From Candidatus Uhrbacteria bacterium (GTDB lineage: Bacteria > Patescibacteriota > Patescibacteriia > SG8-24), in contig JAFGIV010000014.1 in assembly GCA_016929435.1 (NCBI GenBank), positions 1 through 58,444 on the forward strand: a DNA stretch of 58,444 bases, written 5' to 3'. Below are positions 1 through 54,031 of the stretch, one piece after another (position 1 is the first letter of the stretch; every line of letters begins with the position of its first letter). The notes under the pieces are model-generated. The model did no database searches, was not told where the DNA came from, and saw only the letters and a program-made list of their open reading frames with translations. Made by a program: the position numbers and the translations under genes.

Positions 1-64
1 GAGGAAATCCTTGTTGGGTTTCTAAAAATTGCACATTTACAACCTAAAAAGGAGGTGGGTTATG
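1..64 (+). repeat. 64-nt leader (hairpin + SD AAGGAGG + ATG), copy 1; truncated by the window start
   Basis: Positions 1-64 are the exact reverse complement of 4635-4698 (compared base by base). Confidence 0.95.
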
Positions 65-838
65 AAATGGTCCGATCGTCTCTACTTCGGTACGTGGCAA
101 CTCGGAGGACAGTTCAAAAGTCTGTCTAAGGCATATATCGAATCGCTTCTTCTTTTTGCCATCAGTTCCGGTATTCGTCGTTTTGATACGGCGGCCGTCT
201 ATGGCAGTGGCAAGGTAGAGGAGATGCTTGGTGTATGTCTGCCGAAAGATGCAGCCATCGTAACCAAAATTCCTGCGGCATCGAAACCGAATATAAAAAC
301 ACCTGAACCAATCCAGAAATTCTACTCACGAGATGTCATGCATCGAAGTGTGGACGAATCACTGGAAAGATTGCAGCGCTCTTCTGTCGATGTTGCGCTT
401 CTGCATAACTGGCTATCAACATGGTCGGAAGATGCAGTCGCAATCCTCGAGTGTCTAAACGAGCTCAAGGATCAGGGCATGATCCAACGTGTTGGGATTT
501 CTCTGCCCGACAATTTCTCATGCCCCATCAGTGACGCTGTTTTATCGCACATTGATGTGATTGAGGTTCCATTCAATTCGGAACAAAGATGGGTGCTTAC
601 ACAGCTCCCAACTTTAATCGAGTTGAAAAAGGAAATTATCCTGAGAAGCTTGTTTGGTCAAGGAAAACTACTCGCTGGGCGCTCTGCTGAGTCATTGATT
701 CAAGACGCGCTCGAACTCGAAACGTCTGTTGTTATTGGTATGACAACGGAAGAACAAATCACCAAAAACATCAACTGCTTAAGAGGAACATCGGGAAGTA
801 TCACGCCGACCGAAGAAGTGACCAACAACAACCACTGA
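62..838 (+). CDS. Aldo/keto reductase family protein
   Basis: FGTWQLGG, FDTAAVYG (catalytic D/Y), TK and LLHNW motifs; ATG at 62 after AAGGAGG (the ORF-track TTG at 29 lies in the leader). Confidence 0.85.
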   Translation: MKWSDRLYFGTWQLGGQFKSLSKAYIESLLLFAISSGIRRFDTAAVYGSGKVEEMLGVCLPKDAAIVTKIPAASKPNIKTPEPIQKFYSRDVMHRSVDESLERLQRSSVDVALLHNWLSTWSEDAVAILECLNELKDQGMIQRVGISLPDNFSCPISDAVLSHIDVIEVPFNSEQRWVLTQLPTLIELKKEIILRSLFGQGKLLAGRSAESLIQDALELETSVVIGMTTEEQITKNINCLRGTSGSITPTEEVTNNNH

Positions 839-875
839 CCCGTCTTGTGTATATCATTAGGCGGGTCATTTTTTT
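836..875 (+). terminator. Rho-independent terminator after the AKR gene
   Basis: TGACCCGTCT/AGGCGGGTCA stem followed by T7. Confidence 0.8.
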
Positions 876-892
876 GAAAAAAACACAAAATC

Positions 893-1516
893 ATGTATAA
901 TAAAATCATGAATAAGGGTTTTTTGTTACTTACATCAACAGGCCTCACGTCCCCGAATATTTATGAAAAATTTAGGGGTCTTGTTTCTGATCCCAAAAAA
1001 CAGTCAGTTGCCATCATTACCACGGCAGCTGAAGGTAAAGAAAATAACAAGTATTCACAGCTCGCAAAGAAGCAGTTTGAGAGTTTGGGTTTTGTAAACG
1101 TAGATTTTGTAGACCTCGAAACACAGCCAGAGAAAGACTTCTCGCCTTACGGGATCATTTATGTCTGTGGAGGTAATACTTTCAAGCTTCTTAAATTTGC
1201 GAAAAAGGCAAACTTTAAATTATCTATCAAGAAGTTGCTTGAGCGAAACGGAATATACATAGGAGTAAGTGCAGGAAGCATTATTGTTGGTCCATCTATC
1301 AATATCGCTAATGAAGTTGAACCTGACCCCAATGACGTTGGTTTAGAGGATCTTACGGGTTTTGACATAACTAGTCTGATTGTCCTACCGCATTATTCCC
1401 CGGAAATGGAAACTGAAACGGATAATTTTGAGAAAAAATATAGGCTTATTGTAGAACGTTTAGACAACTCACGGGCTATTTTGATTGATAATGGCGAAAA
1501 GACTTTTATTGAATAA
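893..1516 (+). CDS. Peptidase E (S51) / type 1 glutamine amidotransferase-like protein
   Basis: IYVCGGNTF, GVSAG (nucleophile Ser) and LPHY motifs; visibly AT-rich. Confidence 0.85.
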   Translation: MYNKIMNKGFLLLTSTGLTSPNIYEKFRGLVSDPKKQSVAIITTAAEGKENNKYSQLAKKQFESLGFVNVDFVDLETQPEKDFSPYGIIYVCGGNTFKLLKFAKKANFKLSIKKLLERNGIYIGVSAGSIIVGPSINIANEVEPDPNDVGLEDLTGFDITSLIVLPHYSPEMETETDNFEKKYRLIVERLDNSRAILIDNGEKTFIE

Positions 1517-1519
1517 AAA

Positions 1520-1543
1520 GGAGGCACACTTTCGTATGCCTCC
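1520..1543. terminator. Hairpin between convergent genes, probable bidirectional terminator
   Basis: GGAGGCA/TGCCTCC stem with an A-run on the left. Confidence 0.6.
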
Positions 1544-1546
1544 AGG

Positions 1547-2302
1547 TTAGAGCAACCTCTTAATTTTACCCACCACATCCGCCACCCTTTCTCTCCTTGA
1601 GACCTTCAGGGCGACTTCATAGATGAGCAGGTCCGAAGACCTAAGGAGCTTCGCTTGTTGTTCAAGCGATCGAAATCCACGGAAGTATCTTTGGCTGCGG
1701 GCAAATGCAAGCCGAACCATCGAGGCTGTAACATCCGAGAGGCATATTTCTCGCTCGATAGTTGCATTTTCACGCAATTTCTCAAGTGTTGAGAGTTTCT
1801 GCCTGATCTCGTCAGTACACAACTCAATGATAGATTTCGAGAGCGAAACAGGGTAAGGAACAAGCAGTTCCCTGAGTCGGATATTGATGTCCGTAACATC
1901 ATATAGAGTCTCGGCAGTTGCCAAGTCCCCACACAACGCTTCCGGCAACCAATATCCGGTAGCCCAAGGACGATGTTGACCGCCCAGATTCCTGCCCTCG
2001 ATCCACCCCTCGACCTGCTTGACGAGTAAGGCTGAATCGCAAACTGCGACACCGCCTGATCCCGTCGGCATATCAAAGCGAACACTGTCGTCGCACACGA
2101 AGAAGCTTCCGGTTGGCCATCGATTTTCCAGTAAGGCCTTGATGGGATGGGAATATTTCTCGATACTCCCCTCATTGCAGCCCGCCAAAAGGTCAATCTT
2201 TCCTTTTGCCAAATTCCTCTTCAGTCCAACATGCAGCAGCACCTTCATGCCACGCAATTCACGCAAAACGTGAGACAGATCGGAGACTAAGCTATTTTTC
2301 AT
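1547..2302 (-). CDS. Nucleotidyltransferase-like protein (DUF4037-like C-terminal part), degenerate catalytic motif
   Basis: IDLL near the N-terminus; LPEALCGDLATAETLYD...LRELLVPYPVSL resembles NTase/DUF4037 proteins; ATGA overlap with the upstream gene and an AAGGAGG SD. Confidence 0.45.
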   Translation of the reverse strand: MKNSLVSDLSHVLRELRGMKVLLHVGLKRNLAKGKIDLLAGCNEGSIEKYSHPIKALLENRWPTGSFFVCDDSVRFDMPTGSGGVAVCDSALLVKQVEGWIEGRNLGGQHRPWATGYWLPEALCGDLATAETLYDVTDINIRLRELLVPYPVSLSKSIIELCTDEIRQKLSTLEKLRENATIEREICLSDVTASMVRLAFARSQRYFRGFRSLEQQAKLLRSSDLLIYEVALKVSRRERVADVVGKIKRLL

Positions 2303-3417
2303 AGTGCCTCCTTGTTTCGTTTCGACTCCTCGAGCTCAATGAGAGCCTTCGGAAATCCGAATGTGGATGTCAGATACTCGATGTCTGATCCGGTCAGACG
2401 GCCATTCCTGCGAGAGACAAGTTTTGCGTATTCTTTCCTCCCGCACTCAAGCCCCCTCTCGAATTTTGACACCTCTTCGGCAAACACAGTCTGCACCGCA
2501 TCAGCCGAGCCCCATTGATTTCCGGATATCACGACAAACTCATCAAATGAGACGGATGTCTGTCGGCAGAGGATGAAAGCCTCTCGAATGAGTTTCCGAA
2601 GGACATAACCCGCCGCTTTGTTTCCAGGCCGAAGCCCTTCCGATACCAGGAGTACTGCCGCTTTGCCGAGATCGGCGAGGCGACACACGGTGGCTCGATC
2701 CTTTTTACGGGATCGCTCCGTGACGGATTCGATCACGCCTTTCCAGTTTGAGTTTTCATAATCGCTGCTACAGCATTCGGCTGCCGTGACGATACGATCA
2801 ATGCTCGCTCCCGAATCGGCGGCAATCTTCTCCAGGGGAGACTCGAAAAGCGTCTCGCCCAGAAACTCGGTAAAGACCAAGTTCCAGAGCTCGTTCGACT
2901 TATCCGTGTCTGGATTTCTCCAGACGATCTCCGTGCGAACACCGCATCGATTCTGGGTCGGAGTAAAAGTGACGTTCTTGTCATTGCTGACAGTCCTGAC
3001 ACCCAATTTTTCCCATATTTTCTGCGATGTTATATCTTGTGGGTGCACTGTTGCCGATAGCGTGGCGGGGCTGATCCCTGCACACACTGTCAGATAACGC
3101 CAAGCACTCTCGATCATTACATCCTTCACCTCGGCTTCCTTTCCCTCGTAGAGGGAAAAGTGACCGAGCATGTCGAATGCAAGATGGTGTCTTCCCGACA
3201 AACCGATCTTCTCCCATCCGTCTGTCCGCAGGCATGTCTGAACCGAAACGACACGGATCTTCTCAGGGATTGCTCCGTGAGAGATCACATCCTCGAACAC
3301 GACACCGCCAGAGATGTTGAACAGTAGCTTGGGGTTTGCGCTTACGATCGGAATGCTGTTTTGCCACTGGAAACCGAAGGTCCCGAAGTGGCGTCTAATT
3401 TCATCATACGTCTTCAT
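2299..3417 (-). CDS. Truncated alanyl-tRNA synthetase paralog (catalytic + helical domains only; no editing or C-Ala domain)
   Basis: Divergent AlaRS motifs in order: YDEIRRHF, QTCLRTD..GRHHLAFDMLGHFS, ELWNLVF, DSGASIDR, GNKAAGYVLRKLIREA, EEVSKF, LTSTFGFP; 372 aa. Confidence 0.85.
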   Translation of the reverse strand: MKTYDEIRRHFGTFGFQWQNSIPIVSANPKLLFNISGGVVFEDVISHGAIPEKIRVVSVQTCLRTDGWEKIGLSGRHHLAFDMLGHFSLYEGKEAEVKDVMIESAWRYLTVCAGISPATLSATVHPQDITSQKIWEKLGVRTVSNDKNVTFTPTQNRCGVRTEIVWRNPDTDKSNELWNLVFTEFLGETLFESPLEKIAADSGASIDRIVTAAECCSSDYENSNWKGVIESVTERSRKKDRATVCRLADLGKAAVLLVSEGLRPGNKAAGYVLRKLIREAFILCRQTSVSFDEFVVISGNQWGSADAVQTVFAEEVSKFERGLECGRKEYAKLVSRRNGRLTGSDIEYLTSTFGFPKALIELEESKRNKEAL

Positions 3418-4637
3418 GGAGAACCTCCCATTGCCAGATGTTTGAATGCAGTCTGCCTGACTGCGTAGGTGAACTTACTCATCTCGGGATGAGTAACAAG
3501 TCCGTGGTTCATATCCCAACTCACTACGTGAGCCGGAATTCCGAGGCCGTTCAAGATACCCTGTGCTCGTTCGGCTGTCATGTTGTAAACCGAACCTTGA
3601 GTGCAGATTCTCCGCTGGGCCAGAGGGCAGCGAGATGCCTCGCATCCTGATCGTGCGAAAACCTGTACCGAAGTGATGCTCGGAATCCTAAGCATCCGAG
3701 TAAGGGCGCACGACGACTTGAGATAGACGGGGATACCCGGAAAGTGATCGGCGCTCAGTGAGAAGATGGAGTTCACCAGCTCCTGCGGCAACGATTTCAC
3801 GTTGTCATCCCGAGGGATGTCCGGCATGGGGAGCTGGTGAATCTCCACCAGTCCGTTCTCGATACCTTCCGTCCAGCGCAGGCCGCCCGGAACGATCATA
3901 TCGATGACTTCGCCGTAGTGTTTTTTCACCCACAGCATCATCATCTCAATTCTGTCCCGATTACCGCTCCACCCAGGAACGATCGGTCGCATATACCATG
4001 CGATGGTGGCTCCTGCTTCCTTGGCTTCCTCAGCGTTGAGAAAGCGGTTATTGTGCGTGGGCTCAATCGTGTCAGGATTATCTGCCCAGCACAGCGACAG
4101 CATCAAGCCGCGCGTCGCATTCGAGATGCGAGCGAAGTCTAGTTTCCTCCCTTTGGGAACGCCGCCTTTGGTAACGATCCAGAAGGGATTCCGCAGACCG
4201 CGTCGGACGAATCCGTCCATAATCTCGAACGTACTGTCTACGACAGCAGGAGCGAACGGCTCCGTGCTTGCTGTTCCGATGCTGATGATTGTCTCATCAG
4301 CAATAAAGAACGGATGTTTGACCAGTTCATCGAGGATTTGATCTGCGGTAAAATGATTACGTCGTCTTGGTTTTTTCGGCATTGTGCCTTGGTCAGCAAG
4401 ATCTTGATTGGTGTCTTGAACATGACAGTATCTGCACTGCCACGAACATCCAATCCAGAGATCGATACTCAGTGAGCTGTTAGACACGCTGACGCATGAT
4501 AGGGGATGGTTACTGTTTGGCACAAGAACTCCGTATGTGTATTCACGCACAGAAAATTCTCGGCCAGTAGTCATCCCATTGATTGTGACGTGCGGTTCCG
4601 AATTAACGGCCGTAAAGTAGTCCTGCTTAGTTTCCAT
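3414..4637 (-). CDS. Radical SAM enzyme (SPL/SplB-like features)
   Basis: CSWQCRYC (CxxxCxxC), GTASTEPF and VTKG motifs; extra C-terminal Cys cluster CEASRC...C; ATG at 4637 after AAGGAGG. Confidence 0.9.
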   Translation of the reverse strand: METKQDYFTAVNSEPHVTINGMTTGREFSVREYTYGVLVPNSNHPLSCVSVSNSSLSIDLWIGCSWQCRYCHVQDTNQDLADQGTMPKKPRRRNHFTADQILDELVKHPFFIADETIISIGTASTEPFAPAVVDSTFEIMDGFVRRGLRNPFWIVTKGGVPKGRKLDFARISNATRGLMLSLCWADNPDTIEPTHNNRFLNAEEAKEAGATIAWYMRPIVPGWSGNRDRIEMMMLWVKKHYGEVIDMIVPGGLRWTEGIENGLVEIHQLPMPDIPRDDNVKSLPQELVNSIFSLSADHFPGIPVYLKSSCALTRMLRIPSITSVQVFARSGCEASRCPLAQRRICTQGSVYNMTAERAQGILNGLGIPAHVVSWDMNHGLVTHPEMSKFTYAVRQTAFKHLAMGGSP

Positions 4638-4698
4638 AACCCACCTCCTTTTTAGGTTGTAAATGTGCAATTTTTAGAAACCCAACAAGGATTTCCTC
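4635..4698 (-). repeat. 64-nt leader, copy 2 (inverted relative to copy 1), upstream of the radical SAM gene
   Basis: Exact reverse complement of 1-64. Confidence 0.95.
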
Positions 4699-4705
4699 CG
4701 TCGTT

Positions 4706-4734
4706 CTTTTAACACAAATTCGTGTTTTATGCAA
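4706..4734 (-). promoter_or_regulatory. Putative sigma70 promoter for the radical SAM operon with an operator-like inverted repeat in the spacer
   Basis: Minus strand TTGCAT-17nt-TAAAAG; AACAC-N6-GTGTT at 4711-4726. Confidence 0.45.
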
Positions 4735-4763
4735 GCCCGCTCGCATCAGCGACGTTCTACACT

Positions 4764-4935
4764 AGTTGCACCGACTTGGCAGGATAACGGTCTTAGAACA
4801 TGGGATCCAAAGATACGCAACACGGGGAATTCAACCTTGCCGAAAGGCGGGGGAGACAGCCCATGCGTTCAGGCGCTGCGTCGAGACCCTGCCGCACGGG
4901 TTCGTCCGGTCCGTGTCCTTTCCGACGCTGCAACT
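4764..4935 (+). ncRNA. Candidate structured ncRNA of unknown family
   Basis: Five mutually compatible helices including a GAAA-capped hairpin; the G-U pairs work only on the + strand; no credible ORF. Confidence 0.4.
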
Positions 4936-5025
4936 GAAACTTGAGTTTCGGGGGGGGTGACATGTCGATGGGCGGATGCGAAAACGGGTCTCATGGCTGA
5001 AACCCGCCTTTTCGTTGCCGTAATG

Positions 5026-5100
5026 TGGTGCGGGCGGAGGGAATCGAACCCCCATTAACGGTTCCGAAGACCGCCGTTCTGTCCGTTGAACTACGCCCGC
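5026..5100 (-). tRNA. tRNA-Arg(UCG)
   Basis: Cloverleaf, anticodon loop CT-TCG-GA, GGTTCGATTCC T-arm, encoded CCA. Confidence 0.95.
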
Positions 5101-5272
5101 CTGTTTTGCCTGTCAAAAATAGCAGTTTCGGACGGATTTGGGAAGGGGTTCGTGGGGGTTGATATAAAACCGAAAGTATGCCATGATGAGTAATCATCCG
5201 ATAATGGATGGTGGCCGCCGCCGGAAGGCTGCGCAAACCGCATATTTAAAAACCAAAAAACGAGGAGGAAAA

Positions 5273-6088
5273 ATGTTCATGATTGGCGATAGGGTCAAGG
5301 TTGTCTCTTCTGTCCTTCACGACGGGACGGCGACCGTCACCGGTCTTTACGAGAAATTCGTGGGGTGCAACAATTCCGGGCTGAAACCCGGAAAGTACAC
5401 TGACCGAGAAAGCGTTGTCCTGACGCACGATGACGGTCGGACCGAACCGGTAGGGGTTGACCGTTGCCGTTTGGCCGATTCGGAACTGGCCGCCAGGCGG
5501 GAAAGTGAGGAGCGCGCCTGGCTGGAACAGAACCCGGGTCTCGACCTCAGGGAACGGGACCGTGTGGGGGACTTGCCCGAGGAGTTCTTTTGGGAAGGGG
5601 ATTCGGTCAGGGTGGTTGGCGACCGTTTTCCGTCCCTCGGTTCCGGTACCTTCCGTATCGTTCGGGCCGTCTATGACGGTCTTCCGCAATGGTTGCCGGA
5701 GGGATGTAAAAAATACCCGTTTTACTCCCTTGAGGGAGAGGACGAATCAAGATTTTTTCCGCAGGATTGCCTTAGTCTGGCGGAAAAGGGGACTGTCCGC
5801 CTGTTTTACGGCGGAGGGTATGTGTTCTTTCCCAACATTTGGGAACAGGCCAAATTCTACGACCGAATAGGTCATGCCTGGCGGATCAGGAACCCCAAGG
5901 ACGGGACATACGAATGGACCGTGGAGGGAGTCCGAACGGCGATCCGAAACGGGATCGCCCACGGCTATGAGCAGGCAAAAGGCGATGTCGGTCCGGCCTG
6001 TGCCGTCAGGTTCAGGGATGAGTCGTTCGGCAAATGGGTGGCCTACAACACCCTGATCGGGGTGTCGTACGCAATAATTGTTTTTTGA
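5273..6088 (+). CDS. Hypothetical protein with two KOW/SH3-like starts (IGDRVKVV, EGDSVRVV)
   Basis: Long ORF, GAGGAGG SD before ATG 5273, lies between two tRNAs. Confidence 0.7.
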   Translation: MFMIGDRVKVVSSVLHDGTATVTGLYEKFVGCNNSGLKPGKYTDRESVVLTHDDGRTEPVGVDRCRLADSELAARRESEERAWLEQNPGLDLRERDRVGDLPEEFFWEGDSVRVVGDRFPSLGSGTFRIVRAVYDGLPQWLPEGCKKYPFYSLEGEDESRFFPQDCLSLAEKGTVRLFYGGGYVFFPNIWEQAKFYDRIGHAWRIRNPKDGTYEWTVEGVRTAIRNGIAHGYEQAKGDVGPACAVRFRDESFGKWVAYNTLIGVSYAIIVF

Positions 6089-9808: not shown

Positions 9809-11491
9809 ATGGCGTTGGAGATATCGGAACTCAGGAAGATGCTGGTCGGTTCCGGCCTGGTGCCGGAGGCGGATTTCGAGGCGGCGGTTCGGGAATCGTC
9901 CGAATCGGGCCAGTTCCTGGACCGGATACTGGTGGAACGGGGCCTGGTGCCGGACGAATACCTGGGACAGATGGTCGCCGAGGGGTTCGGTGTCCCCTTC
10001 GTCAGCCTCGGCAGTCGGGAGATACCGGATGAAACCCTGCGAATCATCCCGGAACGGGTGGCCCGGCGTTCCCGGATGGTGGCTTTCGGCAGGGACGGCT
10101 CCGGAAAGGTCCTGCTGGCCATGGCCGACCCGACCGATCTGGAGACGATACGCCTGATCGAGAAGAGGGCGGGGGTGCCGGTGGTCGTCCATTACGCCAC
10201 GGACGTCGGCCTGGCCCGGGCCCTGGAACGGTATTCGACGGACCTGGAAAGCGCCATCCGCGGGGTTCTGGACCGGAAGGGCGCGGACGGCGATGACGGG
10301 GAGGGGATACCGGTTACGGTGGTGGAGATGATTTTGGGGTATGCCTTCCAGAGCGGGGCATCGGATGTCCATATCGAGCCGCAGCAGAAGGGCATTGCCG
10401 TGCGCTATCGGGTCGACGGCATTCTCCACGACAGGGTCAACCTTCCGAGGGACCTGCTGGACCCGATAATCAGCAGGATCAAGGTGATGTCCCGAATGCG
10501 GACCGACGAGCATTTTGCGGCCCAGGACGGGAAGTTCCAGGAGGTCATCGACGGCAGGCGGGTGGATATCCGCGTCTCTGTCCTGCCGGTCGTGGACGGT
10601 GAGAAGGTGGTGATGAGGCTCATGGCCGAGAAGGGCCGGCGGTTCGACCTGGCGGATCTGGGATTTTCCGTCGATGACCTGAAAAGGATCCGCCACCACA
10701 GCCAACGGTCATACGGCATGATACTGGCGACCGGCCCCACCGGGTCCGGCAAGACCACCACCATGTACGCCGTACTGAAGACCCTGAACACCAGGGACGT
10801 AAACATCGCCACCATCGAGGACCCGATCGAATACGCCATCGAGGGGGTCAGTCAGATACAGGTGAACCCCAAGGTCGGACTGACGTTCGCCTCCGGGCTG
10901 CGGTCCATAGTCCGCCAGGATCCGGATATCGTCATGGTCGGGGAGATACGCGACGAGGAGACGGCCGGGATCGCCGTGAACGCCGCCATGACCGGGCACC
11001 TGGTCCTTTCCACCCTCCACACGAACGATGCCGCCACCACCCTGCCGCGTTTCAGGGACATGAACGTGGAACCCTTCCTGATATCGTCGTCCATCAACCT
11101 GATAATCGCCCAAAGGCTGGTCCGGAAGATATGTTCGCGCTGCATCGTAAGCGCCGACGTTACCGAGGAGGAGTTGGGGGAGAGGATGTCCGGGGACATG
11201 GTAAGGGAGCTTTACCGCCTTCGGACCTCCAGGAAGGGGCCGTTGCGCCTGTATCGGGGAAAGGGGTGCGTCCACTGCGGCAATACCGGTTACTCCGGAC
11301 GGATCGGCATCTACGAGCTGTTGGAGGTTACGGATGCCGTTCGGGAACTGATCATGGCCGAGGCCAACGCCAAGGTGATCCGCGGGAAGGCCGTTGAGGA
11401 GGGAATGACCACGATGCTGGAAGACGGTTTCCGGAAGGCGATTTCCGGACAGACGACGATCGACGAGGTTCTCCGGGTCGCCGGAGAATAG
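9809..11491 (+). CDS. pilB: Type IV pilus assembly ATPase PilB/GspE
   Basis: Walker A GPTGSGKT, Asp box TIEDPIE, Walker B MVGEIRD, His box HLVLSTLHTND, Zn CxxC...CxxC. Confidence 0.95.
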   Translation: MALEISELRKMLVGSGLVPEADFEAAVRESSESGQFLDRILVERGLVPDEYLGQMVAEGFGVPFVSLGSREIPDETLRIIPERVARRSRMVAFGRDGSGKVLLAMADPTDLETIRLIEKRAGVPVVVHYATDVGLARALERYSTDLESAIRGVLDRKGADGDDGEGIPVTVVEMILGYAFQSGASDVHIEPQQKGIAVRYRVDGILHDRVNLPRDLLDPIISRIKVMSRMRTDEHFAAQDGKFQEVIDGRRVDIRVSVLPVVDGEKVVMRLMAEKGRRFDLADLGFSVDDLKRIRHHSQRSYGMILATGPTGSGKTTTMYAVLKTLNTRDVNIATIEDPIEYAIEGVSQIQVNPKVGLTFASGLRSIVRQDPDIVMVGEIRDEETAGIAVNAAMTGHLVLSTLHTNDAATTLPRFRDMNVEPFLISSSINLIIAQRLVRKICSRCIVSADVTEEELGERMSGDMVRELYRLRTSRKGPLRLYRGKGCVHCGNTGYSGRIGIYELLEVTDAVRELIMAEANAKVIRGKAVEEGMTTMLEDGFRKAISGQTTIDEVLRVAGE

Positions 11492-11501
11492 CCGCAAGCC
11501 C

Positions 11502-12731
11502 ATGTCATACGGTTATGTAGCGTCAACCGGCGAGGGAAAGCTGGTTCGGGGGGTGTCCGAACTGTCCAGCCGGAATTCGGTGATCCGGGACCTGGAATCC
11601 CGGGGCCTGGTCGTGGTTTCGGTCGATCCGGTCCGCCGTTCCCGGTCCTTGGTCCGATTCAGCCTCCGTTCCCTTGGACTGGTCAGCCACCTGGACAAGA
11701 TGATATTCATCAAGCACCTGACCGTCATGGTCAAGGCCGGACTGTCGCTCCTGGAATCCCTGAGGATCCTCCGGGAACAGGCCGCCTCCTTCCGGTTCCG
11801 GATGATCCTGGGGGAGGTAGTCTCCTCGGTCGAGAAGGGGGGAAGCCTTTCCGATTCCCTGGCCCGTTTTCCTAAGGTGTTCTCCGCGTTTTTCGTCAAT
11901 GTAGTCCGGTCCGGGGAGACCGCCGGAACCCTGGAGGGCAACCTGGAACACCTGTCGGAACAGTTCTCCAGGGACCACGAGCTTCGGGGCCGGGTCCGGA
12001 GCGCCATGATGTATCCGGTTTTCGTTATCCTGGCGGCCTTGGCGATCGGCTTCTATTTTGCCCTGTACATAATTCCGCAGGTCGCCGGTCTTTTCGGCGG
12101 ATTGGGGGGGATTGAGATGCCGCTGGCCACCAGGGTCATGATGGGCATTGCCGGCTTTGTCAGGAATCACGGCCCGGCCCTTGCCATCGGAACCGTCGCC
12201 GGCCTGGCCTTTCTGGTCTGGCTGTTGCGGCGGAGGTTCATCCGTCCCCTGACCCACGGCATCATCCTGAAGGTTCCGATTTTCGGGAAGCTCGTCCGGA
12301 ACATCAATTCGGCCCTGTTCTGCCTGGTGTTCGGCACCCAAATGCGCAGCGGCATCCCGATCCTCCAGGCCCTGGAGGTTACCGCCAGCGTCTTGGGGAA
12401 CTGGCACTTCCAGCAGGCCATCCTGGCCACGGCCGAATCGGTCCGGCGCGGGCAGTCCCTTTCCGAAAGCCTGGCGGAACACCCCCGGGTGTTTTCCCGC
12501 CTGACGGTCCGGATGGTGGAGGTTGGGGAACGGTCCGGCCGGCTGGACGAGATACTCGGTTTCCTGGCCGATTTCTACGGTCTGGAGGTCGAGACGACCA
12601 CCAAGAACCTTACGACGATACTGGAACCGGTCATGTTGGTGACCATCGGCCTTCTGGCCCTGGGGCTGGCCTATGCCATCATCATCCCGATCTACAATTT
12701 CGTCGGTTCAATCGGGAACATGGGGCGATAG
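11502..12731 (+). CDS. pilC: Type IV pilus platform protein PilC/GspF
   Basis: Two T2SSF repeats (GE..GTLE..L; MVEVGERSGRLDE), VRSAMMYP, LEP. Confidence 0.93.
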   Translation: MSYGYVASTGEGKLVRGVSELSSRNSVIRDLESRGLVVVSVDPVRRSRSLVRFSLRSLGLVSHLDKMIFIKHLTVMVKAGLSLLESLRILREQAASFRFRMILGEVVSSVEKGGSLSDSLARFPKVFSAFFVNVVRSGETAGTLEGNLEHLSEQFSRDHELRGRVRSAMMYPVFVILAALAIGFYFALYIIPQVAGLFGGLGGIEMPLATRVMMGIAGFVRNHGPALAIGTVAGLAFLVWLLRRRFIRPLTHGIILKVPIFGKLVRNINSALFCLVFGTQMRSGIPILQALEVTASVLGNWHFQQAILATAESVRRGQSLSESLAEHPRVFSRLTVRMVEVGERSGRLDEILGFLADFYGLEVETTTKNLTTILEPVMLVTIGLLALGLAYAIIIPIYNFVGSIGNMGR

Positions 12732-13252: not shown

Positions 13253-16200
13253 ATGCCGACCTTCCGCCGCCATCGCCATACCGGGGGTTTCTCCATATTG
13301 GAGGCGATCATTTCCGTCGCCGTTTTCGGCATCCTGGCCTCCGGCGTCATGATGCTCGTTACCGGCCCGATGTCCGTGGCCAACAAGTCAGCCGATCGGC
13401 AGCGGGCCCTGTTCCTGTCGGAGGAGGGGGTCGAGGCCAGCCGTTCGATCCGCGATGAGGGTTGGGCGGGGCTGGCGGTCGGTAGCCACGGCCTGAGCTC
13501 GGTTTCCGGCCGGTGGCGGTTCAGCGGCCCGGAAGACTCCACTCCCGACGGATTCACGAGGGTGGTCACCGTTTCCGAGGTCCGGAGGGATACGGAAGGG
13601 AACATCGTCGTTTCCGGAGGCAATCCGGACAAACGGACCCGTCAGGTGACGTCCACGGTCAGCTGGGACGACTTCGGCCAGGTCCGTTCGGTCAGCTCCG
13701 TCGCCTACCTGACCGACTGGGACACCTACGACTGGAGACAGTCCACGGACGGGGATTTCCTTCCCGGAACCAGGAACGGCACGCGTATATCCGGCAGCGG
13801 GGAACCGGCGGCCGTGGAGCTGGCGCCTGCCGAAGGGAAGCTCTGGACTTCGGCCGAGGGGAACCTGATCACCCACACGACCGATACCGACTGGTCAGGC
13901 GGCTCTTTCGCGGATACGGAGCTGGTCGGTTCGGGAACGGATGCCTCCATTGCCGAATCCGGACCGATGCGTTGGGTGGAGATCCGGTCCGGCAAGTCGT
14001 TTTTCCACACGACCGACACGGATTTCCTTTCCGGCACCTTCAGCGGCACGGTTGCGGAAGGCACCGGGGACCTGGGTTCGCTGACGGTCGACCGGACTGA
14101 AGGGTGGTCCGTTTCGGTTTCCCCCACCGGTCAGGATATCCGCGGCATTTACATGTTGAGCGATACCGACGGCTGGGCGGTCGGGACAAGCGGCACCATC
14201 CTCCGTTGGGACGGAACTGTTTGGTCGGTATTCGCCGATACCGGCAGTCAGGCCTGGTCCGGCGTCAGCTGCGTCTCGCCCGACGACTGCTGGGCCTCCG
14301 GGGACAGCGGCCGCATCGCCCGCTGGAACGGCACCTCCTGGTCCCAGTTCGTTGACCTGGGGAACCAGGCCTGGTCCGGATTGGCCTGTACGTCATCTTC
14401 CGATTGTTGGGCCGTGGGGAATAGCGGCCGCATCGCCCGCTGGAACGGCACCTCCTGGTCCCAGTTCGTTGACCTGGGGAACCAGGCCTGGTCCGGCGTC
14501 AGCTGCGTATCGTCCGACGACTGCTGGGCCTCCGGGAATAGCGGCCGCATCGCCCGCTGGAACGGCACCTCCTGGTCCCAGTTCACGGATACCGGCAGCC
14601 AGACCTGGAAGGCCGTCCGGATGGTTTCGGCTGCGGACGGTTGGATTACGGCCACAAACGGCAATATCCGTCGCTGGAACGGATCGTCCTGGGTCAGTGT
14701 CGCCTCTCCTACCGCACAATCCCTCAACGGGCTGTTCTGCCTATCGGCCAACGTTTGTTTGGCCGTCGGCGGAAGCGGAATCATCATCGGATGGAACGGC
14801 ACCGCTTGGAGTCAGGTGACTGATTTGGGCGGCCAGGTTTGGTCCGGAGTCGCCTGCGCCTCCTCGGACAGGTGCTGGACAGTCGGGGATGACGGAAACA
14901 TGGCCCGGTACGGTCCCCATTTCCTGCCTTCCGGCACGTACCTGTCGGACGTTTTCGATGCCGGGGAAACGGTCGATTGGGGCTATGCCTTCTGGTCCGA
15001 AAGCCTGCCGGACAACACCGAACTGACCGTGGCGTTCCGTTCCGGCAACGTCCCGGTTCCGGGCGGGTCATGGTCGGCCTGGAGCTCGGAATACACCGAT
15101 CCGGTGAACACCCAAATCCCGTCCCCCTCCTCCAGGTATTTTCAGTATAGGGTCAGCATGTCCACCGGCGATCTCGACGTTGCCCCCAGGCTAGAGGCGA
15201 TTGCCGTGTACTACAACCAGCCTCAGCCGGTCAGCTATTTCGACATGAAGACGATCGGCGATACGGACGGCTGGGCCGTCGGACAGGGCGGGGCCATTGC
15301 CCGTTTCGACGGCAGCGAGTGGTCGTCATACCCGTCGCCCACCTCCAGCACGCTTTACGACGTTGATTTCGCTTCGGCCGACGACGTTTGGGCGGTCGGG
15401 GCCAACGGCACCGTCATCCACTGGAACGGCAGCTCGTGGGGTGCGGTCAGCTCACCGACATCCTGGGCCCTTTACGGCATCGATATCCTGCCCGACGGAA
15501 CCGGCTGGGCCGTCGGCCGGAAGGGGACGGTCATCGAGCTGCGCGGTAACGGGAATTGGTATTCCGCCGTTTCCCCTACCGCCCGTGACCTGAATGCCGT
15601 GAGTCTGGTTTCCGGGACGGACGGGTGGGCCGTGGGAAACCAGGGTTCGGTAATTCGCTGGAACGGCACGGCCTGGTCGACCGTTTCCGTTTCCTACAGC
15701 CAGCGGCTAAACGGTGTCCATGCGGTCAGCGGATCGTTTGCGGTGACTGTCGGCCAGGGCGGGACAGTGTTCGTTTGGGACGGTTCGTCTTGGGTCGGGA
15801 GCGATTCCACCGTATCCAACGAGCTTTTGGATGTCTGGTGCCGGTCAACGGACGATTGTTGGGCCGTCGGCATCCAGCAGACCTTCGTCCAGTGGGACGG
15901 AACCGGATGGTCACAGTACTATTTCAGCAACCCGTCCAATCCCGTAGTGCAGGGGGTTTTTCTCCCGTTGGCCGGTGACGGTTGGGCGACCGGTGAGGGC
16001 GGGGCGCTTTACCGCTATACCGCCTATCGCCAGCCGGTTGCCTACTATACCGGTCCGGCCGTGGATTCCGGTGAGGACGGTGCGGTCTGGAACACGGTCA
16101 GTTGGGAATCCCTCCAGCCCCTCCTTACCGGCCTGTCGGTTTCGGTCCGGACCGGTCCGACACCGTCCCCCGACGGGTCCTGGTCGGCCTGGTCCGGTGA

Positions 16201-17314
16201 GCTTTCGGACGGGGGAGGTTCTACCGTCACCTCGCCGCCCGGACGGTATCTTCAGTACCGGGTGACCTTCACCAGCGGAGATCCGGCGGCCACGGCCGTC
16301 CTGCAGGAGATCGGGATGGTTTGGGGGGCGGTTACCGGGCAGGAACTTCAGGACACCGACGGTTCTGCGGTCAGCGACGTTTGGGCCGTCGGCAGGTCCG
16401 GAACGATCGTCCATTATGACGGCCTGTCATGGTCGCCTGCGGTATCCCCGACCGTCCGGAGCCTGTTTGGGGTGGCGGTTTTGGGCGCCAATGACGCGTG
16501 GGCCGTCGGCGACTCCGGAACGATCCTGCGGTACGACGGCTCGGACTGGTCACAGGCCGCTTCCCCGACCCCGAACGGGCTGCGCGGGGTTGACCTGTCG
16601 GGTACTGATTTCGGTTTTGCCGTCGGCGACTCCGGAACGATCCTGCGGTACGACGGCTCGGACTGGTCGGCCGTCGCGTCGCCCGTATCGGCCAGGCTCA
16701 ATTCCGTTTTTTTGGAATCGTCCGATTTCGGCTGGGCCGTGGGCGACTCAGGCACGATCCTCCATTGGGACGGTGTTTCGTGGTCGTCCGTGCCGTCACC
16801 GACGGTCGTCAGGCTGAATGCCGTAGAGAGCCGTTCGGTGAACGAGGCCTGGGCCGTGGGCAATTCCGGGACGATAGCGTATTGGGACGGGTCCGAGTGG
16901 TCGTCGTTCTCCTCCCCGACGGCCAGGGATCTTTACGGCCTGACCGTCAGGGCCCCGACCGACGGTTGGGCCTGCGGCAACCGGGGTGTCCTTTTGCGCG
17001 ACCCGGAATCCTATCCGCCGACCGGCACCTTCATCTCCACCGTGCTGGACGCCGATTCCCTGGCCGAGTTTAAGACCGCCTTTTGGGAAGGGGAATACCC
17101 TCCGGGGACGGCCGTGACGGTCGCCGTCAGGAGCGGCGATGTGGCCGTGCCGGACGCCACCTGGACGGGATGGAGCCCTGAGATGTCCGGCGATTGGGGG
17201 GCACAGCCGGTTACGGACGGGCGGTATTGGCAATACCGCCTTACCCTGACCACCGGCGATCCGGCCCTGACCCCGTCGTTCCAGGCGATAGTCTTCACTT
17301 ACATGCTACGGTAA
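13253..17314 (+). CDS. Giant minor pilin (1353 aa) with three Trp-rich beta-propeller (YCF48/BNR-like) blocks
   Basis: GG|FSILE prepilin motif; about 20 repeats of ~40 aa (WAVG..GTI..WDG..W); three QYR-containing beta-sandwich segments. Confidence 0.85.
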   Translation: MPTFRRHRHTGGFSILEAIISVAVFGILASGVMMLVTGPMSVANKSADRQRALFLSEEGVEASRSIRDEGWAGLAVGSHGLSSVSGRWRFSGPEDSTPDGFTRVVTVSEVRRDTEGNIVVSGGNPDKRTRQVTSTVSWDDFGQVRSVSSVAYLTDWDTYDWRQSTDGDFLPGTRNGTRISGSGEPAAVELAPAEGKLWTSAEGNLITHTTDTDWSGGSFADTELVGSGTDASIAESGPMRWVEIRSGKSFFHTTDTDFLSGTFSGTVAEGTGDLGSLTVDRTEGWSVSVSPTGQDIRGIYMLSDTDGWAVGTSGTILRWDGTVWSVFADTGSQAWSGVSCVSPDDCWASGDSGRIARWNGTSWSQFVDLGNQAWSGLACTSSSDCWAVGNSGRIARWNGTSWSQFVDLGNQAWSGVSCVSSDDCWASGNSGRIARWNGTSWSQFTDTGSQTWKAVRMVSAADGWITATNGNIRRWNGSSWVSVASPTAQSLNGLFCLSANVCLAVGGSGIIIGWNGTAWSQVTDLGGQVWSGVACASSDRCWTVGDDGNMARYGPHFLPSGTYLSDVFDAGETVDWGYAFWSESLPDNTELTVAFRSGNVPVPGGSWSAWSSEYTDPVNTQIPSPSSRYFQYRVSMSTGDLDVAPRLEAIAVYYNQPQPVSYFDMKTIGDTDGWAVGQGGAIARFDGSEWSSYPSPTSSTLYDVDFASADDVWAVGANGTVIHWNGSSWGAVSSPTSWALYGIDILPDGTGWAVGRKGTVIELRGNGNWYSAVSPTARDLNAVSLVSGTDGWAVGNQGSVIRWNGTAWSTVSVSYSQRLNGVHAVSGSFAVTVGQGGTVFVWDGSSWVGSDSTVSNELLDVWCRSTDDCWAVGIQQTFVQWDGTGWSQYYFSNPSNPVVQGVFLPLAGDGWATGEGGALYRYTAYRQPVAYYTGPAVDSGEDGAVWNTVSWESLQPLLTGLSVSVRTGPTPSPDGSWSAWSGELSDGGGSTVTSPPGRYLQYRVTFTSGDPAATAVLQEIGMVWGAVTGQELQDTDGSAVSDVWAVGRSGTIVHYDGLSWSPAVSPTVRSLFGVAVLGANDAWAVGDSGTILRYDGSDWSQAASPTPNGLRGVDLSGTDFGFAVGDSGTILRYDGSDWSAVASPVSARLNSVFLESSDFGWAVGDSGTILHWDGVSWSSVPSPTVVRLNAVESRSVNEAWAVGNSGTIAYWDGSEWSSFSSPTARDLYGLTVRAPTDGWACGNRGVLLRDPESYPPTGTFISTVLDADSLAEFKTAFWEGEYPPGTAVTVAVRSGDVAVPDATWTGWSPEMSGDWGAQPVTDGRYWQYRLTLTTGDPALTPSFQAIVFTYMLR
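14249..14599 (+). repeat. Three tandem 117-nt (39-aa) near-identical blades within the giant pilin
   Basis: QAWSG...GRIARWNGTSWSQF repeated three times, with long identical DNA stretches. Confidence 0.85.
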
Positions 17315-18295: not shown

Positions 18296-18350
18296 GGAAG
18301 TCGGTGGGTTTGTGGTATGATGAAAATGATTTTGGATGCTTATTTTTGGT

Positions 18351-38343: not shown

Positions 38344-38445
38344 CATCCGCTCGGTTCTGTAGTAAGTTTAGCCAATCGGGAAATGGCGTTTTGTGCGGCA
38401 CGGAAGGGATACCCAACGTGCCCGCCCGTAAAAACACGTTTAGGT

Positions 38446-50495: not shown

Positions 50496-50572
50496 GGGCG
50501 CTTAGCTCAGTTGGTTAGAGCGTCTCGTTTACACCGAGAAGGCCACAGGTTCGAGCCCTGTAGCGCCCACCA
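50496..50572 (+). tRNA. tRNA-Val(UAC)
   Basis: Cloverleaf; anticodon loop TT-TAC-AC; CCA end. Confidence 0.95.
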
Positions 50573-53014: not shown

Positions 53015-53015
53015 T

Positions 53016-54029: not shown

Positions 54030-54031
54030 TT

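Follow-up and report, generated by a model that had tools for sequence, protein, structure and literature searches.

In ascamycin biosynthesis, the alanyl transferase AcmF is a truncated enzyme resembling alanyl-tRNA synthetase (AlaRS), and it is accompanied by AcmD, which is of canonical type, and by a hydrolase, AcmE (PMC12945691). An earlier note on the DNA analysed here, a stretch of 58,444 nucleotides that we call the window, had named ascamycin as a pathway with an AlaRS-like enzyme, and this example proved to be real. The AcmD/AcmF/AcmE trio, together with MccF, is the closest precedent for a group of genes at the start of the window, an analogy made strong by a peptidase gene and by a second AlaRS paralog that the window has since lost. 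Our literature search found no paper that describes this gene module, and no member for which a product, substrate or activity is reported.

Layout of the island

Positions 1-4698 of the window hold five genes, arranged as two convergent operons that have the same leader. The features of this island, and the tRNA gene at its border, are the following.

1..67, + strand: leader copy A, with the AAAGGAGG ribosome-binding site and the ATG of the AKR-S51 operon; promoter presumed
62..838, + strand: short aldo/keto reductase (AKR), 258 aa (PF00248, E 6e-27, 94.9 bits against a cut-off of 24)
786..821, + strand: 36-nt remnant of a second AlaRS-type gene, Ala430 (last 11 codons, EHREVSRRPKK, and stop)
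908..1516, + strand: peptidase S51, a PepE-like serine peptidase, 202 aa (PF03575, E 5.8e-27)
1520..1543, - strand: terminator-like hairpin, a 10-bp stem (6 GC) followed by TTTTTATT
1547..2302, - strand: nucleotidyltransferase (NTase)-fold protein of ANT(4')/DUF4037 type, 251 aa (AF2 and Foldseek)
2299..3417, - strand: Ala372, a diverged stand-alone AlaRS aminoacylation and tRNA-recognition core (PF01411, E 1.8e-41)
3414..4637, - strand: radical SAM enzyme of a rare SplB-like subfamily, 407 aa (CX3CX2C at C64/C68/C71)
4632..4698, - strand: leader copy B, of the radical SAM-Ala372-NTase operon; second arm of the inverted repeat
5026..5100, - strand: tRNA-Arg(TCG), 3' end toward the island; host-side border

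The four genes named in the earlier note are all confirmed in place; its inventory had overlooked the Peptidase_S51 gene that follows the AKR, as well as the lost second AlaRS paralog. What it had said of the expression signals holds. Two ATGA overlaps join the window genes, ribosome-binding sites (GGGAGG / AAGGAGG) can be read directly in the sequence, and the AKR shares its leader with the radical SAM operon in the form of an inverted repeat of 67 nt, whose arms (1-67 and 4632-4698, 99% complementary) are identical through the ATG. The first arm is truncated by the window start. In a relative, the two corresponding genes each start at an arm of such a repeat (107 nt, 88%), with a single 25-kb contig (L014) running across the pair, and the leader repeat design is present at the ends of L001 and L002 too. 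The S51 reading frame opens at 893, with its ATG at 908 and a promoter-like TTGAAA-16-TATAAT ahead of it at 874-901, and the hairpin separates the convergent operons, whose stop codons are at 1516 (S51) and 1547 (NTase).

The AKR is 85% identical to that of L001, and its tetrad (D-x4-Y, K, H) is readable in the sequence (FDTAAVYG, VTKI, LLHNW). Its 3' end is chimeric. Compared with close relatives the window lacks 1263 bp, by which Ala430 was deleted: in blastn, window 26-787 corresponds to L001rc 1-768 and window 784-4673 to L001rc 2032-5926, with the deletion junction at 784-787. The Ala430 remnant matches residues 420-430 at 100% in tblastn, and the final 17 codons of the AKR (788-838) are a novel tail resulting from the deletion. 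An independent Logan contig has the same deletion and the same 258-aa AKR. Since Ala430 is gone and the AKR tail altered, the module copy in the window may be partly decayed.

The AlaRS paralogs and their partners

Ala372 covers positions 10-403 of the 552 in the PF01411 model and is without editing or C-Ala domains. It reaches 147 bits against the alaS model, whose cut-off is 457, and matches PDB AlaRS fragments with E 1e-21 to 1e-26; about 107 clusters, of 370-390 aa, are named 'alanine--tRNA ligase-related protein'. In agreement with the adenylation motifs reported in the earlier note, every adenylation residue is kept, and R69, F90, E209, N212, V214, D235, G237 and R242 are invariant across 100 members, a pattern suggesting that Ala372 is under selection as an enzyme. 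The pocket has changed at M43 (to G) and W170 (to T or F), positions at which adenylate mimics bind. Ala372 keeps the tRNA-recognition helix motif (P-x-N...Y-V-L-R-K/R, R310, R314) and N303, and has lost Tyr399 and Asp400 of the G3:U70 reader; the C-terminus lies near E. coli residue 420. Y399 and D400 are absent also from Ala430, a near-canonical 430-aa AlaRS core (E 1e-72 against an Aquifex AlaRS fragment) that is found in most complete clusters and missing from many clusters. AlaRS enzymes conserve Y399/D400 strictly, and kcat/Km falls about 25-fold in D400A/N (PMC6055181). With Tyr399/Asp400 lost, and with a deep clade of its own apart from both canonical and split AlaRS, Ala372 is not a housekeeping or split AlaRS, which agrees with the reading in the earlier note.

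The label 'nucleotidyltransferase-like' given to the adjacent protein is borne out by its predicted structure. Despite the lack of a Pfam match for the window protein, its AF2 model (pLDDT 89.8, 53-sequence alignment) matches the ANT(4') fold over the full length, the best Foldseek matches being ANT(4')/kanamycin NTase 6p01/1kan (TM 0.58), LinB, HalB and 3c18, and DUF4037 was detected in 6 of 11 relatives. In alignments, the catalytic motifs of the CPR clade are degenerate (G-L for G-S, K-I-D for D-x-D, first Asp lost), and these members may not be catalytic.

The radical SAM subfamily has just 233 representatives among 1.84 billion proteins, and matches to the Rv2578c, PA0069 and spore photoproduct lyase models are weak and far below cut-offs. 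The extra C-terminal Cys cluster noticed before is conserved: 14 homologues, drawn from three phyla, all have C310, C332, C337 and C345 together with C183, and an auxiliary Cys cluster is probable. Fusions to TIR or nucleoside-deoxyribosyltransferase domains occur among distant relatives.

The Ala372 family is rare and patchy: of the species representatives scanned, only about 19 have it, and these belong to Parcubacteria, Saccharibacteria and low-GC gut Firmicutes with reduced genomes. A peptidase adjoins the paralog in all 19 species-level loci, and the enzyme in this slot comes from one of three unrelated families: S51 (PDB relatives Lmo0363 and peptidase E), which occupies 8/8 Parcubacteria-type and 2/2 Saccharibacteria loci, MccF-type S66, or M55. 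The S66 members match MccF-type enzymes with E 1e-36 to 1e-27, against 1e-14 to 1e-11 for LdcA. AKR, radical SAM and NTase accompany the paralog in 16 of the 19 species-level genomes, and all three pairwise fusions exist (AKR-radical SAM; radical SAM-NTase, in P0364 and P0367; NTase-AKR, in L009 and others), so that the gene combination singled out in the earlier note does recur elsewhere. Loci beyond this set fit the same picture. At three loci (L027, on the same contig as L011, and L028) the peptidase and the paralog occur alone, an arrangement more suggestive of a write/erase or immunity pair than of biosynthesis. Three lineages have NUDIX genes within the cluster or next to it. In relatives the surrounding genes, among them toxin-antitoxin modules, an integrase, a STAND NTPase and prophage-like genes, suit an accessory and mobile gene set. 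None of the PADLOC models matches any cluster protein, and the clusters have no conserved exporter or precursor-peptide gene, which is unusual for an antibiotic pathway.

A candidate alanylation pathway and its alternatives

With this in hand we tentatively propose, at somewhat less than an even chance, that the module, a conserved set of five to six genes that moves horizontally, builds a modified nucleotide or nucleoside, adds alanine to it and can take the alanine off again; that the acceptor is a nucleotide, which way each step runs, and whether the role is that of an antimetabolite, a toxin or a defence are what we infer. According to this proposal, the radical SAM enzyme, the short AKR and the ANT-fold NTase would form one unit that makes or remodels a nucleotide-like acceptor, their functional coupling being suggested by the three pairwise fusions and the ATGA overlaps of the window genes. 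Ala372, its adenylate pocket intact and the G3:U70-reading Asp gone, would couple an alanyl group (or a close analogue) to this acceptor, either in the manner of AcmF, using Ala-tRNA while the acceptor occupies the AMP site, or directly, via Ala-AMP. Unlike AcmF, Ala372 retains all activation residues, and therefore its sequence does not imply a tRNA-dependent mechanism. Ala430, where present, could be the Ala-tRNA supplier or a product-insensitive, AcmD-like AlaRS copy. The peptidase would cleave the alanyl-acceptor bond, in uncapping or self-immunity; the filling of its slot by S51, S66 and M55, with S66 closer to MccF than to LdcA, argues for such a logic of ligase and hydrolase. The link to nucleotides is drawn from the ANT(4') fold, the NUDIX neighbours, an ANT(2'')-like gene in L092 and the domain fusions of the radical SAM relatives. 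The aminoacylated-nucleotide product put forward in the earlier note is consistent with the NTase, the recurrent NUDIX genes and the MccF-clade peptidases; the actual product, and whether it would be a toxin, an anti-phage metabolite or part of a detoxification route, is still what we infer. If true, an alanine-capped nucleotide-like metabolite would be made and unmade, by a pathway new to the literature searched.

It is conceivable, though unlikely, that the module is instead a cassette for resistance or immunity to an alanyl-adenylate mimic of external origin, similar to ascamycin or microcin C, where Ala372 and Ala430 would be drug-insensitive AlaRS cores, the peptidase an MccF-like toxin hydrolase, and the NTase would nucleotidylate the toxin. 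For mupirocin, albomycin and agrocin 84, resistance through a duplicated aaRS gene is established. An MccF-clade S66 adjoins the paralog, peptidase-paralog pairs stand by themselves like orphan immunity genes, M43G and W170T/F fall where an adenylate mimic binds, and ANT(4') and ANT(2'') are resistance-enzyme families. However, such a cassette offers no obvious role for an SplB-like radical SAM enzyme and an AKR that are fused mutually and to the NTase, and both paralogs lack the Y399/D400 needed for efficient tRNA-Ala charging. A 461-residue AlaRS fragment is known to charge tRNA, and Ala372 ends short of it; Ala430 was deleted in the window lineage.

Less probable again is a system centred on RNA, the AlaRS-like protein docking on a tRNA acceptor stem while the radical SAM enzyme, reductase and NTase modify or repair the base or 3' end of a tRNA, or another RNA, and the peptidase deacylates. 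One aaRS paralog, GluQRS, is established as a modifier of a tRNA base, and the kept recognition helix motif and a cluster located among aaRS genes (L004) would suit such a function, but the clusters contain no conserved tRNA gene or RNA motif. SplB-type enzymes work on nucleic acid (spore photoproduct lyase), although the radical SAM enzyme falls far below the cut-offs of the SplB models. Likewise, CCA-adding and MenT enzymes share the Pol-beta NTase fold and give weak Foldseek matches, whereas the best structural matches are small-molecule ANTs; three aminoacyl-releasing peptidase families and NUDIX also suit a small molecule better.

The peptidase families raise the possibility, in our view a very slim one, of cell-wall or D-alanine metabolism, with the paralog activating alanine (D or L) for an acceptor related to peptidoglycan, and with peptidases that hydrolyse D-Ala or stem peptides. 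AlaRS itself activates D-amino acids. S66 is the LD-carboxypeptidase family, with a match to the NCBIfam muramoyltetrapeptide carboxypeptidase (E 6.6e-30), but the S66 members are much nearer to MccF-type structures than to LdcA. The D-aminopeptidase DppA belongs to M55, and in L092 the M55 gene is followed by a VanZ-like gene, yet no Mur, Fem or Ddl genes were seen in the clusters. We know of no cell-wall role for S51, and the radical SAM/AKR/NTase triad and NUDIX would be left unexplained. D-amino-acid activation by aaRSs is described in one report (PMC6765224).

Host border and origin of the island

The contig-end inverted repeat and the GC step could in principle reflect a chimeric join or fold-back in the assembly: an arm of the repeat coincides exactly with the end of the contig, there is a sharp GC change near 4.8 kb, and k-mer assemblies yield the segment as separate 4.6-5.9 kb contigs. 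We regard this as highly improbable, since the L014 contig contains both arms in diverged form at the same gene starts, several independent samples have the same gene order, and the repeat stops precisely at start codons; a nearby tRNA gene is, moreover, typical of real islands.

GC is 0.39-0.56 within the island and 0.56-0.63 beyond it, the host being at about 0.60 and Uhrbacteria-like, and the homology to L001 stops at window 4673. Island proteins are 85-93% identical to low-GC relatives, whereas the host LeuRS has no relative above 70% and its neighbours are named Patescibacteria/Uhrbacteria, names that support a CPR host. The GC contrast and these identities indicate a recent transfer of the island into the host, in line with the horizontal acquisition by a CPR-type host suggested earlier. 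The least probable reading of all, ordinary housekeeping in which Ala372 (or Ala430) would be the alpha portion of an AlaRS that is split or truncated in a reduced genome, with unrelated neighbours, is already largely refuted: split AlaRS is known from reduced genomes (Nanoarchaeum), the adenylation residues are intact and Ala430 resembles the Aquifex enzyme closely, but the island is foreign by GC and similarity, the family occurs in few of the species representatives scanned, conserved synteny and fusions bind the paralog to other genes, Ala372 forms a separate clade, Y399/D400 are lost from both paralogs, and Ala430 is missing from many clusters and cleanly deleted here. The tRNA-Arg(TCG) gene at the border is a possible integration site.

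Gene content, leader and origin of the island

Positions 1-4698 of the window form an island of five genes in two convergent operons, with a terminator-like hairpin between them:

62-838, + strand: short aldo/keto reductase (AKR); PF00248, E 6e-27
893-1516, + strand (start probably at ATG 908, the position used in relatives): Peptidase_S51; E 5.8e-27
1520-1543: terminator-like hairpin
1547-2302, - strand: nucleotidyltransferase-like protein (NTase), 251 aa; no Pfam match
2299-3417, - strand: diverged AlaRS-core paralog (Ala372), 372 aa; PF01411, E 1.8e-41
3414-4637, - strand: radical SAM protein (rSAM) with a CX3CX2C motif

An earlier note on this DNA, made from the sequence alone, did not mention the Peptidase_S51 gene that follows the AKR gene. 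Its description of both ATGA overlaps and of the GGGAGG and AAGGAGG ribosome-binding sites agrees exactly with our direct reading. The leader that it saw as common to the AKR and rSAM operons is a 67-nt inverted repeat, with arms at 1-67 and 4632-4698 that are identical through the ATG; the window start cuts the first arm. The repeat is genuine, since a 25-kb contig of a relative (L014) covers both arms, which there measure 107 nt, match at 88% and sit at the starts of the same two genes. A small plasmid, which the many contigs of ~5.9 kb with relatives might have suggested, was rejected, these contigs being fragments of k-mer assemblies that end in the repeated leader. An Rfam search of the window returned five tRNAs only, and in the leader neither a riboswitch nor a T-box.

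In close relatives a sixth gene separates the AKR gene from the S51 gene and encodes a second AlaRS-type protein (Ala430; tRNA-synt_2c, 430 aa). Alignment to one of these loci (L001, in L001rc coordinates) pairs window 26-787 with 1-768 and window 784-4673 with 2032-5926, leaving 1263 bp missing from the window, with a microhomology of 4 nt at the junction. What is left of Ala430 is its final 11 codons and stop (786-821), through which the AKR ORF reads in a different frame, acquiring a new 17-codon tail. An independent assembly (run SRR13394437) also has these five genes, with an AKR of 258 aa. An assembly artefact as the origin of the island is largely excluded. A promoter-like site near consensus (TTGAAA-16-TATAAT, 11/12; 874-908 region) ends 6 nt ahead of the probable S51 start. 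This start lacks a ribosome-binding site, and S51 may be transcribed on its own as a leaderless mRNA.

Outside the island the window has genes for type IV pilus proteins, ComEC, RNase Y, IF-2, LeuRS and a class II aaRS. The nearest named relatives of this LeuRS, at ~58% GC and none above 70% identity, come from Patescibacteria and Uhrbacteria, and the CPR-type host assumed in the earlier note is therefore supported. Horizontal acquisition, also proposed there, gains support from three features: the GC of the island is 0.39-0.56, against ~0.60 in the host; its end lies ~330 nt from the 3' end of a tRNA-Arg(TCG); and its proteins share 85-93% identity with their counterparts in relatives of lower GC, of which the closest is labelled Nomurabacteria (locus GC 0.42). 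Set against the lower identity of the LeuRS relatives, these features point to a recent lateral transfer between CPR lineages. The ~330 nt from the island leader to the tRNA-Arg (4699-5025) are GC-rich and non-coding and match nothing in Rfam. A 301-aa ORF (5183-6088) between the tRNA-Arg and a tRNA-Lys has no match in Pfam, NCBIfam or PADLOC, and its exact sequence is absent from the protein collection searched.

Recurrence and composition of the module

The paralog family comprises ~107 clusters (90% identity) of proteins of 370-390 aa, some of them annotated as 'alanine--tRNA ligase-related protein' in Patescibacteria MAGs. Taking one genome per species, we obtained 19 true paralog-family loci, the other loci kept being canonical AlaRS genes, and determined the gene content of the 19 by tblastn with the cluster proteins. 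AKR, rSAM and NTase stand beside the paralog in 16 of them, so that the four genes singled out in the earlier note do recur together. Ala430 is present in six Parcubacteria-type loci, in both Saccharibacteria loci and in L093, and a peptidase gene in every locus. No relatives were found among IMG/VR viral contigs.

Table. Gene content of loci of the paralog family
Parcubacteria-type, L013-L020 (8 loci): AKR, rSAM, Ala372, NTase and S51 in 8/8; Ala430 in 6/8
Saccharibacteria, L029 and L030 (2 loci): complete six-gene set
Low-GC gut Bacilli, Erysipelotrichaceae and Clostridia MAGs, L021-L024, L026, L031 (6 loci): NTase-AKR fusion, rSAM, Peptidase_S66, paralog
L025 (low-GC gut Firmicutes group): S66 and paralog; rSAM gene detected in part only
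L027, L028 (low-GC gut Firmicutes group): S66 and paralog only
L092: ANT(2'')-like gene, AKR, rSAM, paralog, NTase, then Peptidase_M55 (DppA family)
L093: six-gene set with NUDIX, second rSAM, LuxE and methyltransferases; adjoins prophage-like genes
L094 (same contig as L030): NUDIX, toxin-antitoxin modules and integrase nearby

There is strong evidence that AKR, rSAM and NTase work as one unit, because all three pairwise fusions exist: AKR-rSAM (P0373, P0374, P0376, P0381), rSAM-NTase (P0364, P0367) and, in gut Firmicutes loci, NTase-AKR. The rSAM protein is of a rare type, with only 233 relatives among 1.84 billion representative proteins in an exhaustive HMMER search, 33 of them with E <= 1e-30. 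Its motif C64-x3-C68-x2-C71 is invariant among homologues, as are C183 and the extra C-terminal cysteine cluster that had been noticed in the sequence (C310, C332, C337, C345). Since the match to PF04055 reaches 19.8 bits, under the gathering threshold of 29.5, membership of the radical SAM superfamily rests on the motif together with weak family matches. The sole curated families with detectable similarity to the core are the Rv2578c, PA0069 and spore photoproduct lyase models (COG1533), where scores of 17.7-27.7 bits against cut-offs of 360-430 place the protein outside each family. It differs from these proteins in an N-terminal extra segment of its own, in the C-terminal four-cysteine cluster and in gene context, and a PDB sequence search returned no relative. 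C183, a conserved extra cysteine, recalls the H-donor cysteine of spore photoproduct lyase. Distant relatives (P0420, P0450, P0453, P0434; 27-30% identity) carry a fused N-terminal TIR or nucleoside 2-deoxyribosyltransferase-like domain, nucleotide-processing domains that are typical of conflict systems. PADLOC 2.0 matched no cluster protein, and in the TIR-rSAM fusions it recognised the TIR part and no system beyond it.

The AKR scores 94.9 bits against PF00248 (gathering 24), over model positions 2-140 only. It is short, at 245-258 aa, and candidates for the Asp-Tyr-Lys-His tetrad are visible in its sequence.

The 251-aa protein, earlier called nucleotidyltransferase-like, has such a fold in its predicted structure. 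AF2 gave a pLDDT of 38.6 from the single sequence and 89.8 with a 53-sequence alignment; in Foldseek the model best matches ANT(4')/kanamycin nucleotidyltransferase, along its whole length (6p01, 6un8, 1kan; ~256 columns, TM 0.56-0.58, probability 1.00), followed by LinB, HalB and the DUF4037-type 3c18. DUF4037 was detected in 6 of 11 NTase relatives, and a profile of the family gave noise only against PDB sequences. The NTase shares with ANT(4') an N-terminal Pol-beta NTase domain, a helical domain and the same size (253 aa), but its sequence identity to ANT(4') and DUF4037 proteins is ~10% and its G-S and D-x-D motifs are degenerate in the CPR clade, where they read V-G-L and K/R-I-D, the first Asp being replaced by Lys or Arg. 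Unlike ANT(4'), it has an obligate link to AKR and rSAM, in some cases as a fusion, and nothing indicates an aminoglycoside substrate. In the window clade D71 is invariant, and D37 and D72 are each kept in at least 90% (alignment A2). The fused homologues of Firmicutes retain G-S and D-I-D. Because of the replacements in the CPR clade, catalytic activity of the window NTase is uncertain.

The gene beside the paralog encodes an S51 peptidase in CPR, an S66 peptidase in gut Firmicutes and an M55 peptidase in L092; the window S51 scores 95.1 bits (Pfam gathering 23.9) over positions 1-195 of 206. The three hydrolase families are unrelated: S66 and M55 enzymes release a terminal residue, and S51 enzymes cleave dipeptides. 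That unrelated families displace one another in the same position argues that hydrolysis of an aminoacyl-X bond would be an integral step of the module. The S66 proteins beside the paralog in Firmicutes-type clusters are closest to MccF-type structures (4e5s, 3gjz, 3tla; E 1e-36 to 1e-27, against 1e-14 to 1e-11 for LdcA), and MccF enzymes cut the aminoacyl-nucleotide amide bond of adenylate mimics. However, the microcin C system has a peptide-adenylation machinery and the module nothing of the MccA/MccB type, the window itself has an S51 peptidase in place of the MccF-type S66, and the ligase of the module is of the Ala type, whereas MccF prefers Asp/Glu conjugates.

The neighbourhood of the module in L092 is conflict-system-like: one flank (1-5416) encodes an EAD7/caspase-like protein, SurE and a 1254-aa STAND protein (DUF4062 + NB-ARC + TPR), and the other (9987-12707) Peptidase_M55, a VanZ-like gene and a 489-aa PLP-dependent (PALP) enzyme. 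In L009 (2953-5863), which lies on the same contig of a gut Bacilli MAG as L021, a RelA/SpoT-family gene (HD + RelA_SpoT + TGS, 480 aa) and the NTase-AKR fusion gene share 14 nt at the start of the latter, suggesting that the RelA/SpoT gene is co-transcribed with the module; an AMP-binding acyl-CoA-ligase-like gene follows the paralog there.

The AlaRS-derived proteins and the ascamycin precedent

Both paralog clades were compared with 19 canonical AlaRS translated from the fetched loci. Residue numbers are those of E. coli AlaRS, with positions set by conserved motifs and checked against the 19 canonical sequences. The editing (tRNA_SAD) and C-Ala domains are absent from Ala372 and Ala430 alike. 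On the alaS equivalog model TIGR00344 (cut-off 457 bits) Ala372 scores 147.3 bits and the Ala430 of relatives 352.7; Ala372 covers PF01411 positions 10-403 only, stopping near E. coli residue 420. Ala372 matches solved AlaRS fragments with E 1e-21 to 1e-26, and Ala430 matches Aquifex AlaRS with E 1e-72.

Ala372 retains the class II fold of canonical AlaRS, the motif 2 and motif 3 arginines, the Asp235 alpha-amino anchor and the helical tRNA-recognition domain with Asn303. R69, F90, E209, N212, V214, D235, G237 and R242 are invariant across 100 family members, and all eight are kept in canonical AlaRS and in the Ala430 clade too. In the control alignment with the 19 canonical proteins, the adenylation and alanine-pocket residues (R69, N212, V214, D235, G237, R242) are kept in 16-17 of the 17 paralog members. 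Apart from the missing domains, it departs from canonical AlaRS in the change of M43 to Gly, the altered W170, the loss of Tyr399 and Asp400, and a deep clade of its own. M43 and W170 are presumably pocket residues of AlaRS. Of the G3:U70 recognition set, Asn303 with Tyr399/Asp400/Gly403, only the Asn and the Gly are kept. Chong et al. (PMC6055181) report that Tyr399, Asp400 and Gly403 are strictly conserved in AlaRS and that D400A/N lowers kcat/Km ~25-fold. A motif-2 loop lacking 'GGKH' was rejected as a special feature of the paralog, being also found in 17 of the 19 canonical controls.

Table. Residues of canonical AlaRS and their counterparts (canonical; Ala372; Ala430)
M43: M; G; M (7/8)
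W170: W; F/T/H; W
E91: E; D/E/N; R (mostly)
Asn303: N 18/19; N 14/17; N
Tyr399: Y 16/19; K/T/A/S; K/H/F
Asp400: D 17/19; S 15/17; T5, E2, S1

From the clusters examined, an ordinary housekeeping AlaRS is very unlikely and a split one unlikely, because the paralog family is rare, the island is foreign, and Ala430 is dispensable, missing from many clusters and deleted in the window. As to a split enzyme, Ala372 does not group with canonical AlaRS in a neighbour-joining tree, where it forms a separate deep clade and Ala430 a long branch beside the canonical proteins, and a scan of the clusters found no beta-like gene in any. A pyrrolysine-like code-expansion cassette was rejected since none of 24 clusters contains a tRNA gene, the tRNA-Arg of the window belonging to the host flank.

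The AlaRS-like enzyme of ascamycin biosynthesis, which the earlier note had cited, is real: it is AcmF, the only described AlaRS-like biosynthetic enzyme found in the literature searched, and part of the trio AcmD/AcmF/AcmE of Streptomyces sp. 80H647 (PMC12945691; Zheng et al., ACS Catal 2024). AcmD, an AlaRS of the canonical type, provides Ala-tRNA; AcmF, truncated to the aminoacylation and tRNA-recognition domains and devoid of the Asp-plus-Asn G3:U70 architecture, transfers alanyl to an adenosine analogue in its AMP site, at the sulfamate of this adenylate-like acceptor; and the hydrolase AcmE strips the alanyl group (PMC12945691).

By description and gene content, Ala430, Ala372 and the peptidase mirror AcmD, AcmF and AcmE. 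Ala372 has the same truncation, like AcmF it is without the Asp-plus-Asn combination for G3:U70, and it is encoded with a canonical-type AlaRS (Ala430, deleted in the window) and a hydrolase. However, the residues for ATP and alanine activation that are lost in AcmF (N219Q, D232E) have invariant equivalents in Ala372, N212 and D235, along with both motif arginines, and Asn303 is kept, unlike in AcmF. AcmE is a secreted alpha/beta hydrolase, whereas the hydrolases of the module are S51, S66 or M55 peptidases; the scaffold comes from the sulfamate pathway in ascamycin and would come from a SplB-like rSAM, an AKR and an ANT-fold NTase in the module; and the hosts are Streptomyces in the one case and CPR and reduced Firmicutes in the other. 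There was no Streptomyces protein among the 119 matches of the paralog-family search, and literature searches on the gene combination, on AlaRS with MccF and on AlaRS in Patescibacteria brought up the AcmF review and nothing else. The module is real, recurrent and undescribed in the literature searched, and is a variant of the aaRS-paralog or aminoacyl-nucleoside theme in an unexpected host group.

A possible alanylated nucleotide, its alternatives and the rest of the window

Our best explanation, held tentatively and at slightly less than even confidence, is a mobile module whose enzymes produce a modified nucleotide or nucleoside, alanylate it and are able to de-alanylate it. According to this proposal, the rSAM/AKR/NTase unit, joined by NUDIX in some lineages, would make the compound, Ala372 would alanylate it, Ala430 would act as supplier of Ala-tRNA or as an insensitive AlaRS copy, and the S51, S66 or M55 peptidase would de-alanylate the product. 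The analysis shows the gene content, its recurrence, the fusions, the residue patterns, the fold and the lateral transfer; that the acceptor is a nucleotide, in which order and direction the steps run, and that the product serves as capped antimetabolite, toxin or defence are inferences. A more specific form of the proposal is possible, albeit doubtful: in CPR and reduced gut Firmicutes the three enzymes might forge an adenylate-like nucleotide that the intact AlaRS paralog caps with alanine and an MccF-like, S51 or M55 peptidase uncaps, yielding an antimetabolite against phage, host or competitor cells.

The peptidase-plus-paralog pairs that stand alone (L028 and L027, the latter sharing its contig with L011) would fit a resistance cassette against alanyl-adenylate mimics, but such a cassette leaves the rSAM/AKR unit unexplained and we consider it unlikely. 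An RNA-modification system is improbable, and a role in D-Ala or cell-wall metabolism more improbable still.

Secondary or specialised metabolism is generally considered to be almost absent from CPR bacteria. A module that is conserved, exchanged laterally and centred on two AlaRS-derived enzymes would be a rare exception and, if the alanylated-nucleotide proposal is true, the first aaRS-paralog-based pathway to a bioactive nucleoside outside actinomycetes and the first in CPR. It would add beside AcmF a second, mechanistically different family of AlaRS-like natural-product enzymes, with the adenylation site kept, and would give a context to an uncharacterised SplB-like rSAM subfamily and to DUF4037-type nucleotidyltransferases. 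Were the product an aminoacyl-adenylate mimic, it would be a candidate aaRS inhibitor with built-in immunity genes; were it a capped antimetabolite, it would offer a new logic for phage defence or for the interaction of an episymbiont with its host. A few recombinant proteins would be enough for a direct test of the hypothesis.

A second low-GC island (50638-55201; GC 0.45-0.48) follows the tRNA-Val at 50496-50572 and has the look of a small tRNA-associated defence island:

50638-51693: 351-aa ORF, upstream of the methylase; no Pfam match
51764-53014: EcoRI-type adenine methylase
52950-54029: RhuM-family protein
54032-55201: GmrSD_N + HNH type IV restriction-like protein

The 351-aa ORF may be the cognate endonuclease of the methylase. 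Several LeuRS homologues from Patescibacteria (P0254, P0263, P0288, P0320 and others; 935-958 aa) carry a fused NUDIX domain (PF00293), and the window LeuRS (38383-40905) is without this fusion. The type IV pilus cluster encodes PilB (9809-11491), PilC (11502-12731), a PilM-like protein (18336-21002) and a pilin-like N_methyl protein (21703-23493), and within it lies a 1353-aa ORF (13253-17314) with BNR/YCF48-like repeats.
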